Part shown: positions 5,185 through 64,000 of the stretch, piece by piece | Position numbering within the stretch: the first letter of the stretch is position 1 | Layout of the letters: every line of letters starts with the position of its first letter | Assembly (NCBI GenBank): GCA_020050435.1 | Contig: JAGVKQ010000011.1 | Location: 3,350-67,349, forward strand | Origin: Candidatus Caenarcanales bacterium | GTDB taxonomy: Bacteria > Cyanobacteriota > Vampirovibrionia > 2-02-FULL-35-15 | Length of the DNA stretch: 64,000 nt | Direction: 5' to 3' | Program-made: the position numbers and the translations under genes | The notes under the pieces: generated by a model | Databases searched by the model: none | What the model was told of the DNA's origin: nothing | The model's input: the letters and a program-made list of their open reading frames with translations, nothing else

Positions 5185-6342
5185 ATGCGCACATTTGAAG
5201 AAATTAATGAAAAAATCAAAAATTCTAAGATAAAAGTTCTAACAGCACTGGAAGCAAAAAACTATATTAAAGAAAAGGGAATTAACTCTTTTTCATCTGA
5301 TATTGATGTCGTTACCTGTGCTAGTTTTGAAATGCATACAAATGCGCTTCTCTACTTGAGTTTTGGTCAAACAGATCCAATGATTTATTTTCAGGAAGTT
5401 TCAGTTAATGGTGTTCCTGCTTACCCTACTGGTCCTACTGATATAGCCATATCATGTGTCTCTTCCTCTAAGGATGACATAAATTATAGTGGTGCAAATA
5501 TTTTGGAAGACCTTCTTTTGGGCAAGAATCTACATTTGAAAGCTGTGGGAAAACATTCAGGAGTTTTTCCAAATAGAGAATTTGAGACTTGGTTTAATTT
5601 AAAAGATGTTAATCAAAGTAGATTACTTTTAAATCAATCGCTAAATCAAAACAATATCGTGGCTTGTAATTCCAGTGATAATGACATTAATTCACATATG
5701 GGCACTTTAATAGGTAAATTAGAAAATTCAACTTTTAACTCTTCAACCTTCTTGAATCCATTAATTAATGATCCATTTTGTAAAACAATCGGTGTTGGTA
5801 CAAGTGTATGGATAGCTGGTTCTAGGGGAGTTATTGTAGGACATGGAAGTTCTCATAACCCTAATCAAAAAAGAAATGAATATGGTATCCCTGTTGGTCC
5901 TTCTATTACATTGTCTAGCATTGTAGATATCTCTTCAATGAATCCTAAGTGGGTGAAGCCAGGTCATATCCAGTCATTTGGACCTGTTCTATTTATTAGC
6001 GTTGCTATTGCTATTCCAGTTTTAAATAAAGAAATTGCAGAGTGCCTTTCAATAACTGATGATAAAATCCACACAACGATTGTGGACTTTTCTATCCCTA
6101 GAAGAACAAAACCAACTTTTGGTCAATGTACCTATGCTGAGCTTAGGACAAGTACAGTATCCATTAATAATAAACCTACATTAACAGCGCCGCTTACTAG
6201 TATGGCTTACTCTATAGAGTCATGCAATGAGCTAAAAAATGATATATTGAATAAAAAATTTATTCTATCAAAACCTACATCTGAGATTAATATGGGTGTG
6301 GAATTGAAAAAACTTGATGCAAAGCTTGGAGAGTTAGTCTAA
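5185..6342 (+). CDS. DUF39/COG1900-like protein, homologous to the L-aspartate-semialdehyde sulfurtransferase family used by methanogens for homocysteine biosynthesis. The motifs are divergent.
   Basis: The N-terminus RTFEEINEKIK..KVLTA.E......DVVT resembles the DUF39 start KTIEEINEKI..AVVVTAEE...VDVVTTG recalled from memory. GVGTSVWIAGSRGVIVGHGSSHNP resembles the DUF39 glycine-rich block. The match could not be verified computationally. Confidence 0.45.
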   Translation: MRTFEEINEKIKNSKIKVLTALEAKNYIKEKGINSFSSDIDVVTCASFEMHTNALLYLSFGQTDPMIYFQEVSVNGVPAYPTGPTDIAISCVSSSKDDINYSGANILEDLLLGKNLHLKAVGKHSGVFPNREFETWFNLKDVNQSRLLLNQSLNQNNIVACNSSDNDINSHMGTLIGKLENSTFNSSTFLNPLINDPFCKTIGVGTSVWIAGSRGVIVGHGSSHNPNQKRNEYGIPVGPSITLSSIVDISSMNPKWVKPGHIQSFGPVLFISVAIAIPVLNKEIAECLSITDDKIHTTIVDFSIPRRTKPTFGQCTYAELRTSTVSINNKPTLTAPLTSMAYSIESCNELKNDILNKKFILSKPTSEINMGVELKKLDAKLGELV

Positions 6343-8123: not shown

Positions 8124-9069
8124 AAATATAAAAAATAAGAAATTCACAAAAGAGTTTGTTTCTGAAATCTATAATCTTCCTTTGCTTGATTTAGTCTATA
8201 AAGCTCAGACTGTTCATAGAGAGTATCAGCCATTAAATAAAGTGCAGCTTTGTACCCTTGGAAATATAAAGAGTGGAAATTGTCCTGAAGATTGTAAGTA
8301 TTGCCCACAAAGTTCTAGGTATAATACTGAAATTGAAAAATATAAATTAATGCCTAAAGAAGATGTCATTAAAGAAGCTACACTTGCTAAAGAAAATGGT
8401 TCTACAAGATTTTGTATGGGAGCTGCATGGAGAAATGCTCCTGAAAATGAAGAGTTTAATCACATTCTTGAATTGGTTAAAGAAGTTAAAAATCTTGGAA
8501 TGGAAGCTTGTTGTACATTGGGTATGCTTACTCAGGAACAGGCAAATAAATTAAAAGATGCAGGGCTTACTGCTTATAATCATAATTTAGATACATCAGA
8601 AGAATTTTATAAAGAAGTGATTACTACAAGAACTTACAAGGATAGATTAGAAACCATCCAGTATGTTGCTGATGCTGGTATTCAGGTTTGTTCAGGTGGA
8701 ATTCTTGGTTTGGGTGAATCTGTTGAAGATAGAATTGAATTATTTAGGACACTTGCTAATCTGGATCCTCAGCCAGAATCAGTTCCTATAAATGTTTTAG
8801 TTAAAGTAGAGGGTACTCCTCTTTTTGGTAATGAAGAAATTGACCCATTTGATATGGTTAGAAGTATAGCTACTGCTAGGATTCTTATGCCAAAGGCTAG
8901 AGTTAGGTTATCTGCAGGCAGATTACAAATGACAGATGAACTTCAGACTCTTTGTTTTATGGGTGGTGCAAACAGTATTTTTACTGGAGAAAAATTACTA
9001 ACTACTGATAATCCATCTTTCAATGCTGATAAAAAATTATTTGAGAAATTGAAGATAGAAGCGATGTAG
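8089..9069 (+). CDS. bioB: Biotin synthase (radical SAM); the more likely start is ATG 8101 (MQKTIL...)
   Basis: GNCPEDCKYCPQSSRY is essentially identical to the E. coli BioB radical-SAM cysteine motif, and the length is about 320 aa. Confidence 0.9.
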   Translation: MRSLMQKTILDENIKNKKFTKEFVSEIYNLPLLDLVYKAQTVHREYQPLNKVQLCTLGNIKSGNCPEDCKYCPQSSRYNTEIEKYKLMPKEDVIKEATLAKENGSTRFCMGAAWRNAPENEEFNHILELVKEVKNLGMEACCTLGMLTQEQANKLKDAGLTAYNHNLDTSEEFYKEVITTRTYKDRLETIQYVADAGIQVCSGGILGLGESVEDRIELFRTLANLDPQPESVPINVLVKVEGTPLFGNEEIDPFDMVRSIATARILMPKARVRLSAGRLQMTDELQTLCFMGGANSIFTGEKLLTTDNPSFNADKKLFEKLKIEAM

Positions 9070-20449: not shown

Positions 20450-20578
20450 TTCACTCTTAGTACGAATGTATTACACTCATACATTAAATAAAATTAATTA
20501 TAATCTTTAGATTATTTTTAGTTTTCATCTATCTTTTATACATATCTTTTATGTATATTCAAAGTATAATATTTAGGT

Positions 20579-21619
20579 TTGTTTTTAAGAAAGGTATTTA
20601 TGGCAATTAGACCCACTCATTTTTTCCCAGCTCAAAGCTACGTAAAAGGAAGACCTAGTTATTCAGTTTCATCTAAACTTAATAGAACCTTGGGTGTAGA
20701 GGTTGCTCCAGAGTTGACTATGAAAGACTTCTTGAAGACCTCTCTTCAATATTTAAATAGAGATGAAATTTTAGGTGGACGTATAGGGGACATTAATCAT
20801 GTAATTGGCTCTATAGAAGGAAAATGTAGAACTGCTGGTTCAGTTCTTTCCCCAGTTGAAGAACAAATTTTATTATCAATGGGAATCTATGAAAGAAGTA
20901 CTTATATGGATAGAGATACGACTGAACTTGTTCATAGAGTAGTACCAAAAGATGTAACTTATGATGAATGGGGAAAATTGATTGATTCAGAAAAGCCTAT
21001 TTTAGCTCATGAAGCTTTTGATTTATTTGGTTCTTATAGTAATGCTGATAAAGCAGCTATGCTAGAAGTTGTTCACCGTGAAATGACACTTACTTCAGAA
21101 GCTAAATCTACATTAGCTGACTTAAAATCAACACCTATTCCAGCACCCATTGAATTGTTAAAAGCCCATACGGTTTTTAGAGCATTACCAAATGAATCTG
21201 AAATTGCTAAATATGAAAAACTTAGTGTTAGTCTGGGTGGGCTAGTAGCAGTTTTATCACATTATGAAAGTAGACATGCTGATCATAAATATGAACACGC
21301 TTTGCAAGATGTAAATGATATTTATAGAGACTTTGAAACAATACTTTCTCATAAGGCTGATGATTTTGGTTCTAGATTTGGTGTTGAAATCCATAATTTT
21401 AGAGCTGCTAAAGTTGAAGCTCACTTTAGTACATTGAAAGAGTTGCAAGCAAATTCTTTAGATAGTAAATCTATTAATAAGGCTGCTTCTGAAGCACTTT
21501 TAGCTTTAGAAGAACTATTTCATGAGTCTAAGACTTTACCGCCAGAAAGAAGACGTTTAAATGATGTATCTTTTGAAAGAATGAGAACTGCATTAACAAA
21601 GCTTACTCTAGTAGCTTAA
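20579..21619 (+). CDS. Hypothetical protein (346 aa) with a His-rich segment and no recognisable domain
   Basis: Long ORF with a plausible start at MAIRPTHFF. It contains HYESRHADHKYEH. It is convergent with the HerA-like ATPase gene. Confidence 0.5.
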   Translation: MFLRKVFMAIRPTHFFPAQSYVKGRPSYSVSSKLNRTLGVEVAPELTMKDFLKTSLQYLNRDEILGGRIGDINHVIGSIEGKCRTAGSVLSPVEEQILLSMGIYERSTYMDRDTTELVHRVVPKDVTYDEWGKLIDSEKPILAHEAFDLFGSYSNADKAAMLEVVHREMTLTSEAKSTLADLKSTPIPAPIELLKAHTVFRALPNESEIAKYEKLSVSLGGLVAVLSHYESRHADHKYEHALQDVNDIYRDFETILSHKADDFGSRFGVEIHNFRAAKVEAHFSTLKELQANSLDSKSINKAASEALLALEELFHESKTLPPERRRLNDVSFERMRTALTKLTLVA

Positions 21620-21630
21620 AGCTCAGCAGC

Positions 21631-21764
21631 TAACTTATAGTGCTAATCCAGAAAATTGTCATTGCGAGGAGGATGAAATCCGACGAAGCAATCTTGCTTG
21701 ACCGATATTGCTTTGTGAGATTGCCACGTCGCCACTTCGTGGCTCCTCGCAATGACACAGTTCA
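21631..21764. mobile_element. MITE-like nested palindromic element (family A: gtcattgcgag...ctcgcaatgac) flanked by a 15-bp direct repeat TTAAAGCTCAGCAGC at 21616-21630 and 21765-21779
   Basis: The outer inverted repeat is tgtcattgcgaggagg / cctcctcgcaatgaca and the inner one is gaagcaatct..agattgc. The perfect 15-bp flanking duplication contains the stop codons of both convergent genes. Confidence 0.6.
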
Positions 21765-23435
21765 TTAAAGCTCAGCAGCAGCTAATTCACCACGTTTAAT
21801 AATTTCTTCTTTAGTTAGCTTTTCTTCACTAGAAACTGATTTGTAAAATTCAGAATCATATCTTCTAGTACGCACTACAATAGGCATTGGCATAGCATAG
21901 CCAAACATTAATACTTCTTGTTTAGGGTTTAGCTGGGAAAGAATAGCTTTTAATTCCTGTCCACCAGACTCCCCTACAAACACGGCATTGATATCATTCT
22001 CATCATTTAAAAGAAGAGTGGCTCTCGTTCCTATCTGAGACATTATTTCATTGTCGATTCCTGATGGTCTTTGATCTACGATTAAAAGGGTGACATTATA
22101 TTTTCTAAGTTCACGAGCTATGATGCCAAAAGTTGAAAATCTGGCTACCTGTGGAGATAAAAACTTATGTGCTTCTTCTATAGTGATAACTAATCTCTTA
22201 GGCGGCTGGTATTTATCTGGTGCTAATAAATACTTTTCAGTCATATCTACATAAGCTGCATGGATGTGTCTGGTAATAATGTTTGCAGCTAGCATATAAC
22301 TTTTTAAATTACTAAGTCTTCCAAACTGTAAAACTACACTTCTGCCACTGGTTAGAAAGCTAAGAATTTTTTTAATGCCATCAAAACTAGTGACTGATTT
22401 TAAGTATTTTACTGAATCTACTAATGTGTTTAATTTTCTTTGAAGAGCTAGTATGGAACCCTGATTAGCACCATACTGAGCACAGAACTCTTCTATGTGT
22501 CCTACTGTCATATTGCAAAGTTTATTAAACCAGTCTCTTTCATATTCTCTTTGAATCATTCGAGCATGATCTATCATAGCCTCAGATAAGCCTAGTTCGC
22601 TTTGAAGTAGTTCTAAGTCTTCTATATCTATCTGGCTAAATGCTATTTCTAATGTCTGTGCATCTTTAAATGTATAAGATTTATTGTCTGGATCTAGTGT
22701 GAAAACTTCTATCTTGTCGTTAAATAATTGCTTTAATCCTTTTGATGAGGCTTGTTTTTCATCTGTACCTTGCCAGCCGTACTCATTGTGCATGTCAAAA
22801 ATTAATACACTGGCAGCATCTTTTTTCAATATTCCTGAAAGAAGTATTCTGCTCAAGAATGATTTTCCTGTTCCAGACTTTCCAAACACAGCATTTGATC
22901 TTTCTACAAACTTTTCAAGATTTATACAAAGTGGAATGTCCATTTCAGCAGGATAGCCAATGTGAAAGTTTTTATTATTCTTTTCATCTTTCCCAAAGAT
23001 TTCTTCTATGTCATTTTCTGTGGCTTCATATACAGAGGAGAAGTGTGGTGGAATGGTTTTTACTTTAGGGACATCTTCTAAAGACTTTTTATTAGTTAAG
23101 TCGACCATTAAGAATGGAGTTAAATGTACTAATCCATATACAGAAGTACCCTTTAAAACCTCTTTAATAAAACTATCGTTAGGTGATGGAATATGATTTA
23201 AGAATTTAGCATTAGAAGATTGAAGTTCTATATCTGTAACCATTGAGAAAAATTTATTTCTTTCTCCTTGTATGACTACGAATTTCCCAATTCTTAATTT
23301 TTCAATATCATAGCTATTGTCTAATTTTAAAAGTAAGCCTTTAGTGAAGGATCCTGAGACCACCTGACCAACGAGGCTTTGTGCTAACGTGCCTACGTTC
23401 CCACGTTCCGACGAATCTGTTTTATAGTCCTTCAT
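21765..23435 (-). CDS. HerA/FtsK-like P-loop ATPase (DUF87-type, HerA-like helicase)
   Basis: 556 aa with an N-terminal beta-barrel-like region, Walker A FGKSGTGKSF, the HerA-typical ITIEEAHKF block, and Walker B/Arg-finger region LLIVDQRPSGID. Confidence 0.75.
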   Translation of the reverse strand: MKDYKTDSSERGNVGTLAQSLVGQVVSGSFTKGLLLKLDNSYDIEKLRIGKFVVIQGERNKFFSMVTDIELQSSNAKFLNHIPSPNDSFIKEVLKGTSVYGLVHLTPFLMVDLTNKKSLEDVPKVKTIPPHFSSVYEATENDIEEIFGKDEKNNKNFHIGYPAEMDIPLCINLEKFVERSNAVFGKSGTGKSFLSRILLSGILKKDAASVLIFDMHNEYGWQGTDEKQASSKGLKQLFNDKIEVFTLDPDNKSYTFKDAQTLEIAFSQIDIEDLELLQSELGLSEAMIDHARMIQREYERDWFNKLCNMTVGHIEEFCAQYGANQGSILALQRKLNTLVDSVKYLKSVTSFDGIKKILSFLTSGRSVVLQFGRLSNLKSYMLAANIITRHIHAAYVDMTEKYLLAPDKYQPPKRLVITIEEAHKFLSPQVARFSTFGIIARELRKYNVTLLIVDQRPSGIDNEIMSQIGTRATLLLNDENDINAVFVGESGGQELKAILSQLNPKQEVLMFGYAMPMPIVVRTRRYDSEFYKSVSSEEKLTKEEIIKRGELAAAEL

Positions 23436-35229: not shown

Positions 35230-35979
35230 ATGGATGTAAACGCTGAAGTTAACAATTTAATTTCTAAAGCATTTTCTCTAGTTAATGAGGATAAAAATAA
35301 TGAAGCTTTTGAAATTGTAAATGCCATTTCTTCTGATAAATATGTAAATAACTTAAATAAAGATCATTTCCAGGCAATTGGAGATATTTGCTTGTCTTTA
35401 GGCAAGTTTGAATTAGCTAAAGATTTTTACCTGAAAGCTGAAAATCCAGAAGCAGCAAGCCTGGCTCTAATTGCTCTTGATGACTTAGATGAAGCTAGCA
35501 AGTTGCTTCTAAAGTGTCCAAAGTCCCCACCATCAACATGGTGTAATTTTCTAATTGATGTATTTAATGAAAAAGCAATTAAACAATGGCCTTCTTTTTT
35601 AGAAATCAGACACTTTATGGAATTAACTGTTTATAGTCTTTTACTGGGAAAGAGGCATTATTTTATATCACTTCTTCTGAAAAGGTTAAATCGATTATTA
35701 GATATAAATATAGATTCTGAAAAGTTAATAGGCTATGCATATTTTCATTATGGTGACTTAGACAATGCAATTAAATTTTTAAAGTCTTCTATTCGTAAGA
35801 ACCGTACGGATGGAGAAATATATTTTGTTCTTGGGCAGATAAGCTTAGAAAAAGGAGATTTAAAAGAGTCACTTTCAATGCTTGAAAATGCAAAAACATT
35901 ATTGGCTAACCATTACCCTAGTAAGAAATTATATGAAGAGGTGAAGGCTGCTTTGTCATTGCGAACCCTGAAAGGGTGA
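35230..35979 (+). CDS. Hypothetical helical, TPR-like protein (249 aa). Its last 9 codons and the stop lie inside a family A palindromic repeat.
   Basis: It is an ORF only. The C-terminal ALSLRTLKG* is encoded by the repeat gctttgtcattgcgaaccctgaaagggtga. Confidence 0.4.
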   Translation: MDVNAEVNNLISKAFSLVNEDKNNEAFEIVNAISSDKYVNNLNKDHFQAIGDICLSLGKFELAKDFYLKAENPEAASLALIALDDLDEASKLLLKCPKSPPSTWCNFLIDVFNEKAIKQWPSFLEIRHFMELTVYSLLLGKRHYFISLLLKRLNRLLDINIDSEKLIGYAYFHYGDLDNAIKFLKSSIRKNRTDGEIYFVLGQISLEKGDLKESLSMLENAKTLLANHYPSKKLYEEVKAALSLRTLKG

Positions 35980-36038
35980 AGCAATCTCACAAGCAAAATC
36001 GGTCAAGTAAGATTGCTTCGCCTTTGGCTCGCAATGAC
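35955..36038. repeat. Family A nested palindromic repeat, copy 2 (gtcattgcgaaccc...gggctcgcaatgac with inner gcaatctcac...agattgc)
   Basis: Read directly from the sequence, between convergent genes. Confidence 0.6.
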
Positions 36039-36056
36039 ATTTGCATGTTGAATCCC

Positions 36057-45827: not shown

Positions 45828-45885
45828 TGTTTAATTTTAACCCACTTGTATTTTTAGGTTTTCTTTAGAATTTAACCTTACTATT

Positions 45886-45984
45886 GTCATTGCGAGCCCT
45901 GAATGAAATGAAGGGCGTGGCAATCTCAGTTGACCAATATTGTATTGTGAGATTGCTTCACTCATTTCATGGGTTCGCAATGAC
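45886..45984. repeat. Family A nested palindromic repeat, copy 4 (gtcattgcgagccc...gggttcgcaatgac with inner ggcaatctca...tgagattgc)
   Basis: Read directly, in the folE-ilvH intergenic region. Confidence 0.6.
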
Positions 45985-46054
45985 TTTTATCCTTGATTTC
46001 TTCGCACATCTTTGCAAATAATGATAAACTGTAAAACACTAATTTAGAGGTCAC

Positions 46055-55018: not shown

Positions 55019-55105
55019 GGACAGGTGTTCGAGTGGTTTATGAAGATAGTCTTGAAAACTATTGATGCCGTAAGGTATCCGGGGGTTCGAATCCCTCCCT
55101 GTCCT
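55019..55105 (+). tRNA. tRNA-Ser (anticodon UGA), class II with a long variable arm
   Basis: Manual fold: acceptor ggacagg/cctgtcc, D-arm ttc/gaa, anticodon stem atagt/actat with loop cttgaaa (anticodon TGA), a long variable arm, and T-arm ggggg-ttcgaat-ccctc. CCA is not encoded. Confidence 0.8.
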
Positions 55106-63790: not shown

Positions 63791-64000
63791 AGCCATGGAG
63801 AGTTTGATCCTGGCTCAGGACGAACGCTGGCGGCATGCCTCATACATGCAAGTCGAACGCCCCGCAAGGGGAGTGGCGTAAGGGTGAGTAACGCGTAGGA
63901 ATCTGCCTTAGACTGGGGGATAACCTGGGGAAACCCGGGCTAATACCGCATATTGCCGAGAGGTGAAAGATTTATCGGTCTAAGATGAGCCTGCGTATGA
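63791..64000 (+). rRNA. rrs: 16S ribosomal RNA, 5' end only; the gene continues beyond the window
   Basis: AGAGTTTGATCCTGGCTCAG at 63799, then GACGAACGCTGGCGGCATGCCTCATACATGCAAGTCGAACG, then GAGTAACGCGTAGGAATCTGCC. Confidence 0.9.

Follow-up and report, generated by a model that had tools for sequence, protein, structure and literature searches.

Repetitive extragenic palindromes (REPs) tagged with CGTC were defined by Di Nocera, De Gregorio & Rocco 2013 (BMC Genomics 14:522, PMC3733652). They carry a CGTC or TGTC tag, AT stem ends and a short tail with the consensus CCA, and occur mostly as inverted dimers; the tag variants are TGTC, which is common, and CCTC. Neisseria dRS3 and Rickettsia RPE-4 and RPE-6 are included among them. 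The families CGTC-1 to CGTC-4 have a stem of 8–9 bp and a loop of 4–5 nucleotides (nt), and bulged forms may have escaped the search. REPs were found mostly downstream of open reading frames (ORFs), and the CGTC-tagged ones, which ‘apparently lack a dedicated transposase’, were reported not to flank RAYTs, the REP-associated tyrosine transposases (PMC3733652). Here, a palindrome related to these repeats is described from a 64-kb stretch of contig JAGVKQ010000011.1 of a Candidatus Caenarcanales bacterium, the whole of which is called the window. The palindrome, named copy A, lies at positions 21657–21757 between the convergent ends of an ORF of 346 amino acids (aa) and a HerA-like ATPase gene.

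The second system of relevance was described by Chenal et al. 2025 (Nat Commun 16:2388, PMC11893778). The Neisseria repeat NTS (CGTCATTCCCGCGMAVGCGGGAATCYRG) is bound as single-stranded DNA (ssDNA) only, by SsnA, a nuclease of 94 aa with a single GIY-YIG domain, which cuts NTS a few nt upstream. GTC, the stem ends and the C after the stem are the positions critical for cleavage and binding, and the substrate of Ssn is ssDNA, not RNA. Motifs were found near 71% of the ssnA homologues and on both sides of 42%; the layout NTS-ssnA-NTS resembles that of an insertion sequence (IS), and mobility was hypothesised only (PMC11893778). In 2013 no mobilising enzyme was known for these repeats; in 2025 they were tied to ssDNA nucleases of a new, site-specific class (PMC3733652, PMC11893778). 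Their movement, and the route that it might take, is so far hypothetical. We consider it likely that copy A is a gene-less copy of this CGTC-REP and Ssn-related-motif (SRM) hairpin family, recently inserted at a stop-codon overlap, and not a classical MITE, a miniature transposable element with inverted repeats.

Structure of copy A

The 15-mer TTAAAGCTCAGCAGC was found in two exact copies in the 64 kb, at 21616–21630 and 21765–21779. Only three other similar sites were present in the window, each with two or three mismatches, which lies within the expectation from shuffles. An earlier interpretation of the same DNA (the sequence-only reading) had placed this pair around 134 nt with exact coordinates at both ends, and its concern that the 15-mer might be a common word was not borne out in the window. 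Inside the enclosed 134 nt (21631–21764) lies a nested palindrome of 101 nt (21657–21757), the outer arms of which, TGTCATTGCGAGGAG (21657–21671) and CTCCTCGCAATGACA (21743–21757), are 100% complementary over 15 nt. The inner arms are GCAATCT and AGATTGC. Both pairs of arms had been described as such; the sixteenth outer pair of that description had to be dropped, the right arm reading gctcctcg and not cctcctcg.

The copies of TTAAAGCTCAGCAGC do not abut the palindrome. The left copy is separated from the left arm by a unique stretch of 26 nt (21631–21656), for which no significant likeness to the flanks of the two other window copies described below or to the neighbouring target was found, and the right arm from the right copy by a unique stretch of 7 nt (CAGTTCA, 21758–21764). 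The direct repeat corresponds to the final codons of the HerA gene (...LAAAEL*) and grows to 18/21 nt if a 3-nt GCT indel is allowed, the left copy being one GCT short of the HerA end. As had been read from the sequence, both stop codons lie within the repeats: the right copy is the native 3' end of the HerA-like gene with its TAA stop on the minus strand, and the left copy, a duplicate of the last HerA codons, holds the TAA stop (21617–21619) of the 346-aa ORF.

The plus strand of copy A was predicted to fold into a four-way junction of −52.9 kcal/mol (z = −6.8 against shuffles), and the other strand into one of −50.6 kcal/mol (z about −7). Two units of a hairpin repeat, in inverted orientation and with their tags outward, make up the 101-nt palindrome. 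Each arm, on its own strand, consists of (T)GTC, a 5-bp ATTGC stem, a small hairpin that is often GNA-looped, GCAAT and C. The TGTC-tagged left arm (21657–21694, plus strand), a putative variant of the CGTC-REP and SRM hairpin, has the order GTC, 5-bp ATTGC stem, internal loop, GGAT-GAA-ATCC mini-hairpin, GCAAT and CT. It is followed by the central spacer TGCTTGACCGATATTGCTTTGTG (21695–21717) and by the right arm TGTCATTGCGAGGAGCCACGAAGTGGCGACGTGGCAATCT (21718–21757), which has the same hairpin motif on the minus strand.

Further copies in the window and an empty site

Four occurrences of the core CATTGCGAG were counted in the window, with 0.16 expected. Two further copies were recognised, copy B (35954–36039) between convergent genes and copy C (45885–45984) between the divergent genes folE and ilvH, in keeping with the earlier view of a multi-copy, non-autonomous palindromic element. 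All three copies are inverted dimers, and all six arms are predicted to fold singly as GTC and ATTGC stem ... GCAAT and C. The tag is TGTC in five arms and AGTC in the sixth; the first two stem positions are A-T throughout (GTC-AT TGC ... GCA AT-C(T)).

For copy C, both a filled and an empty site are available. In the sister strain L203-L205, of which FolE is 93% identical, the spacer between ilvH and folE measures 94 nt and contains no copy C, nor is the copy present in the ilvH-folE spacer of the outgroup L206 (GCA_964602915.1). Compared with the empty site, the whole insertion spans about 45876–46011 and amounts to 133–136 extra nt, composed of 7 nt, the 100-nt palindrome and 28 nt. This size and layout parallel the unit of 134 nt at copy A (26 + 101 + 7). 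The sister strain comes from JGI sample 3300009777 (contigs Ga0105164_*). Since copy C is missing from both the sister strain and the outgroup, it was inserted within the lineage of the window, and this polymorphism shows the element family to have been inserting recently in this Melainabacteria lineage. The recent mobilisation proposed from the sequence alone is thus supported for the family.

The side stretches of 26, 28 and 7 nt were considered as a conserved part of the element and rejected, pairwise anchored alignments being no better than those of shuffles (p 0.1–0.8). Those at 21631–21656 and 45985–46012 and the 7-nt ones are unique, neither significantly similar to each other nor derived from the target. 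A longer target duplication at copy A (GCTAATCCA vs GCTAATTCA) was also discarded (p 0.30), as was a longer one at copy C, likewise non-significant. On the strand with the short stretch at its 5' side, a short T-run follows the palindrome (ATTTTC at copy A, TTTTAT at copy C).

The central spacer (TTGACCRATATTG..TTGTG), at 21695–21717, 35985–36008 and 45925–45947, is shared by the three window copies despite its variability across the family. On the plus strand the spacer of copy B is inverted relative to those of copies A and C, which may reflect either the orientation of the whole element or a flip of the spacer alone within its inverted arms. Copy B also provides a gene with TPR repeats (35230–35979) with its last eight codons (...SLRTLKG) and stop, a coding contribution that recalls the in-frame Rickettsia palindromic elements of the same CGTC superfamily. 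Beside ilvH, relatives carry small genes of toxin-antitoxin type (a PIN-domain pair at 8640–9320 of L203, ParE/RelB at 260–726 of L206), and the gene content near ilvH in L203 and L206 is unlike that of the window.

Distribution and anatomy of the family

Bacterial contigs, one genome per species, were searched with the pattern GTCATTGCGA-N(8-38)-GCAATCT-N(10-40)-AGATTGC. More than 118 stretches were present among the matches listed, originating from Chloroflexota, Patescibacteria, Planctomycetota, Bacteroidota, Nitrospirota, Elusimicrobiota, Bacillota and Cyanobacteria as well as from Alpha-, Gamma- and Deltaproteobacteria. The 85 full copies that were fetched are all inverted dimers and share a constant anatomy. 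From the outside inward they have the box GTCATTGCGAG, a mini-hairpin that varies (GCGNAGC or stem-GAA-stem in many cases), a second, inner box GAAGCAATCTC and a centre without any conservation, after which the parts recur as a mirror image. The segments between the boxes fold better than shuffles, GNA loops being the most frequent. In some genomes several tandem copies of the outer box GTCATTGCGA (or GTCATTCTGAG) precede a full arm (L031 2729–2849, L018 7369–7660, L209 540–620), which suggests slippage or repeated partial insertion. A literature search with the sequence strings of the repeat gave no match.

The 45-nt flanks of 84 members were compared. In 82 of them the longest word shared by both flanks was no longer than in the shuffled-pair control, and in none of the 84 did a repeat directly abut the palindrome. 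One of the two outliers is copy A, with its 15 nt at 27 and 8 nt from the GTCAT/ATGAC ends. The other is the Anaerolineales member L056, where GTAACCTGTTTT (12 nt) is found at 19 and 8 nt from the palindrome ends; this locus (6151–6289 of CAKKQG010000450.1) has the same geometry of a short and a long side as copy A. These comparisons show that the family is not characterised by a fixed, adjacent target-site duplication (TSD).

The genes beside the repeats are unrelated housekeeping genes. Among the 947 clustered ORFs around 118 loci, no transposase cluster was enriched, and no RAYT was found near the repeats.

GIY-YIG genes between the arms

The sole small ORF that recurred near the repeats encodes a GIY-YIG protein of about 100 aa (Pfam GIY-YIG, 7e-18), located between or against the arms at four Bacteroidota loci. 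NCBIfam gave only sub-threshold matches for these proteins, and the Protein Data Bank only a weak match to UPF0213. When metagenomes were scanned with an alignment built from these proteins, 80 loci were obtained, 77 of which were usable. In 48/77 (62%), GTCAT was present at most 130 nt upstream and ATGAC at most 130 nt downstream, about 1.5% being expected by chance; this fraction with both sides flanked is in agreement with that of Chenal et al. The 10-mers of the window itself were found, with at most one mismatch, at about 40 of the metagenome loci. An order of left arm, gene and right arm with exactly the arm type of the window was seen in L131, L134, L184 and L129, among others, and GIY-YIG genes flanked by this arm type were also counted in L126 and L152. 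Other GIY-YIG loci are flanked by sister arm types such as GTCATTCCCGCG..CGCGGGAATCC, and a homologue in Planktothrix has complete dimers on its flanks, the arms of which are of a closely related type.

The flanked genes encode single-domain GIY-YIG proteins of about 95 aa belonging to the Ssn family. Across 92 residues, the protein of L131 shares 52% identity (E 6e-37) with a 94-aa ORF of Neisseria gonorrhoeae that is flanked by NTS repeats, the orthologue of SsnA. The central spacer of the window copy takes the position held by the ssn gene in the gene-carrying relatives, and copy A is the gene-less, non-autonomous form of such arm-ssn-arm elements. A cognate ssn gene would be expected between arms of the type TGTCATTGCGAG...GCAATCT.

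Comparison with known repeats

The arms in the window share with the CGTC-tagged REPs an unpaired 5' tag (CGTC or TGTC), A-T stem ends and a 3' tail that starts with C. The copies resemble these REPs in forming inverted dimers with spacers of 20–100 nt, in their occurrence in many phyla, and in their intergenic position, often behind an ORF or between convergent genes and at times running into coding sequence. Copies A and B are located at convergent gene ends, as CGTC REPs often are. The tail differs, being CCA in the CGTC REPs and CTy in the window, so that only its first base is common to both. Moreover, the CGTC families described are mostly alphaproteobacterial, whereas the window arm type ranges from Patescibacteria to Melainabacteria. 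With NTS and the SRMs, the six window arms share GTC directly 5' and C directly 3' of the hairpin, and in other organisms this arm type is found in the Ssn-like arrangement of arm, gene and arm around a small single-domain GIY-YIG protein. The paper on NTS and Ssn holds no insertion or empty-site data, whereas a filled and an empty site are documented here.

The REPIN-RAYT system (Bertels & Rainey 2011; Nunvar 2010; Ton-Hoang 2012) is similar in its two inverted hairpins with a spacer, its non-autonomous and intergenic nature, a cognate gene flanked by the same repeats and the recognition of a single-stranded hairpin. It differs in its tag, GTAG as opposed to (C/T)GTC here (TGTC in the window copy), and in its enzyme, an HUH tyrosine transposase able to rejoin DNA as opposed to a hydrolytic GIY-YIG nuclease. 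Classical MITEs (Correia/NEMIS, ERIC, Nezha) are also small, palindromic and multi-copy and show strain polymorphism; the present element differs from them in that no short TSD of fixed length adjoins its inverted repeats, in the lack of a cognate IS transposase, and in its arms, which are conserved across phyla.

Neighbouring genes and related strains

The HerA-like ATPase gene (21765–23435, minus strand) encodes DUF87/HerA (Pfam, 4e-33) and HAS barrel domains, and its homologues place the organism in Candidatus Melainabacteria. The 346-aa ORF (20579–21619, plus strand; 339 aa from the ATG at 20600) is an ORFan in a variable slot between mutS and herA. No Pfam domain was detected in it, no homologue other than itself was found among 5.8 billion proteins, and it is unrelated to the genes that occupy the slot in relatives (tblastn E>1). 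Elsewhere, the mutS-herA slot contains an extra 213-aa gene beside mutS (L001) or three other genes (L002).

In the sister strain L001 the HerA protein is 99% identical and the nucleotide identity of the flanks is 91–94%. The homology spans HerA up to position 21766 of the window, inside the HerA stop codon (21765–21767), and is picked up again close to the neighbouring gene's start codon, about 5 nt upstream of it. Between these breakpoints the window has 1166 nt, with the palindrome, the repeat and the ORFan, and L001 has 307 nt with an unrelated 101-aa gene. The slots compared are 20456–21766 of the window and 5637–6088 of L001, the promoter/5' region and the herA end being 91–94% identical. 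The HerA stop of L001 overlaps the stop of its convergent neighbour as TTAG. Overlapping convergent stops are therefore the native layout at the HerA end, as the sequence-only reading had supposed.

The window further contains a single tRNA-Ser(TGA) at 55019–55105 and, at its end (63792–64000), a bacterial 16S rRNA gene of which the first ~240 nt are included.

Discussion

The most economical reading of copy A is that a unit of 134 nt was inserted into a stop overlap and that the HerA end was duplicated in the process. By analogy with SsnA (PMC11893778), each arm would fold in single-stranded DNA and be bound by an Ssn encoded elsewhere in the genome, which would cut a few nt 5' of the GTC tag. 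The unit, consisting of 26 nt, the palindrome and 7 nt, would then have entered the TTAA stop overlap of HerA and the convergent 346-aa gene, with duplication of the last 15 nt of HerA (18/21 with the GCT slip), so that both genes kept their ends. Both would be intact because the event duplicated the overlap, and only such an event would leave them so. Removal of the 149-nt segment gives the predicted junction of herA and the 346-aa gene, ...GTAGCTTAAAGCTCAGCAGCAGCTAATTC.... The direct repeat is best read as the footprint of an insertion and not as a hallmark of the family.

Several observations weigh against this reading. The window arms have a 5-bp ATTGC stem with an insert of 14–26 nt that contains a mini-hairpin, and none of the four CGTC families fits them; the published SRM pattern HGTCWYN(0-2)YYVSBRHN(0-5)WNVSBRGN(0-2)RNCYNB had no match on either strand of the window. 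It is on account of these two mismatches that the arms are called a structural variant, to judge from their motifs one that falls within the known CGTC-REP/SRM superfamily. Apart from a possible 3 nt (CTT), copy C shows no duplication of its target, and the wider family also has none, so that the 15-nt repeat is not explained by any known property of the element. The 64-kb window contains no ssn gene, and the cognate nuclease is assumed to be present in the organism. No true empty site for copy A was found among the relatives, because its neighbour of 346 aa is an ORFan and a different gene fills that slot in the closest relative. Finally, Ssn is a hydrolytic nuclease and, to our knowledge, has no strand-transfer activity.

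The locus may also be explained by a cassette replacement, in which the 346-aa gene was imported by recombination together with the remnant of a donor HerA 3' end, leaving the palindrome and its flanks bounded by the resident HerA end on one side and the imported one on the other. This would account for the segment from the HerA stop to the start of the neighbour, which is wholly different in a sister strain of 91–94% identity (1166 vs 307 nt) with breakpoints at the stop and start codons; the gene content between mutS and herA is variable among relatives, and a left repeat lacking one GCT is what a diverged allele might show. A homologous replacement should, however, leave the HerA end unduplicated, the repeat is otherwise perfect across 15 nt, and the material between the repeats matches the independent insertion of copy C in size and layout (7 nt, palindrome, 26–28 nt). 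We regard such a replacement as unlikely. A structure retained for its function in RNA or DNA, as a bidirectional terminator or a stabiliser of mRNA 3' ends next to an incidental repeat, would agree with the highly stable stem on both strands, with the position of copies A and B at convergent gene ends, with the ATTTTC that follows the stem on the HerA sense strand and with the reported preference of REPs for sites downstream of ORFs (PMC3733652). Neither a promoter nor a terminator consensus was detected at copy A, though, copy C is found between divergent genes, the sister strains function without the element, the substrate of Ssn is ssDNA and not RNA (PMC11893778), and the duplication would be left unexplained. 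As the explanation of the locus this seems quite improbable; a role at transcript ends, possible but unsupported, is compatible with an inserted hairpin repeat as a secondary effect.

The sequence-only reading had seen in copy A a MITE-like element and textbook evidence for its recent mobilisation. A classical MITE would be the deletion derivative of an IS, mobilised in trans by a transposase of the DDE or IS200/IS605 type, the staggered cut of which creates a fixed TSD of 15 bp. Terminal inverted repeats, multiple copies, a perfect flanking repeat of 15 nt and the mobility evident from the polymorphism of copy C would all be expected of such an element. The textbook TSD did not survive closer comparison: the repeat stands 26 and 7 nt off the inverted repeats, a duplication of this kind is missing at copy C, and flank repeats are no longer than chance in 82 of the 84 members, with the offset repeats of copy A and L056 as outliers. 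Nor was a link to IS200/IS605 and TnpB found, as no transposase family is enriched beside the 118 loci and the gene bounded by these arms encodes a GIY-YIG nuclease of about 95 aa and no transposase. The suggested guide RNA fared no better; Rfam, with its omega-RNA, HEARO and IS605 models, gave nothing relevant for the whole window at the gathering threshold or for 21500–21900 at E<=10, so that no TnpB or IscB guide RNA was recognised. A classical MITE is thus very improbable. The element is mobile and non-autonomous and was probably inserted at the stop overlap, without being a textbook MITE with a TSD.

Tentatively, and with a low probability, copies A and C with their 7 nt, palindrome and 26–28 nt could be the first recognisable footprints of the spread of Ssn-associated repeats. 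The spreading form would be a single-strand fragment with its 5' end determined by Ssn, through a cut a few nt upstream of GTC; host replication or repair would copy this fragment into a new site, sometimes filling a long stagger. Long, offset duplications are occasional in the family, with 15 nt at copy A and 12 nt in L056. If this were true, Ssn and its repeats would constitute a mobile system in which the driving enzyme is a hydrolytic GIY-YIG nuclease instead of a transposase.

The locus and its sibling extend the hairpin-repeat system to Melainabacteria and bring to light a very widespread arm type that was overlooked by the published SRM search pattern. They add a clean pair of filled and empty sites, and one probable insertion whose 15-nt duplication kept two overlapping gene ends. 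Nothing is overturned by these findings; their use lies in the raw material that they offer for work on the mechanism by which such repeats are inserted.

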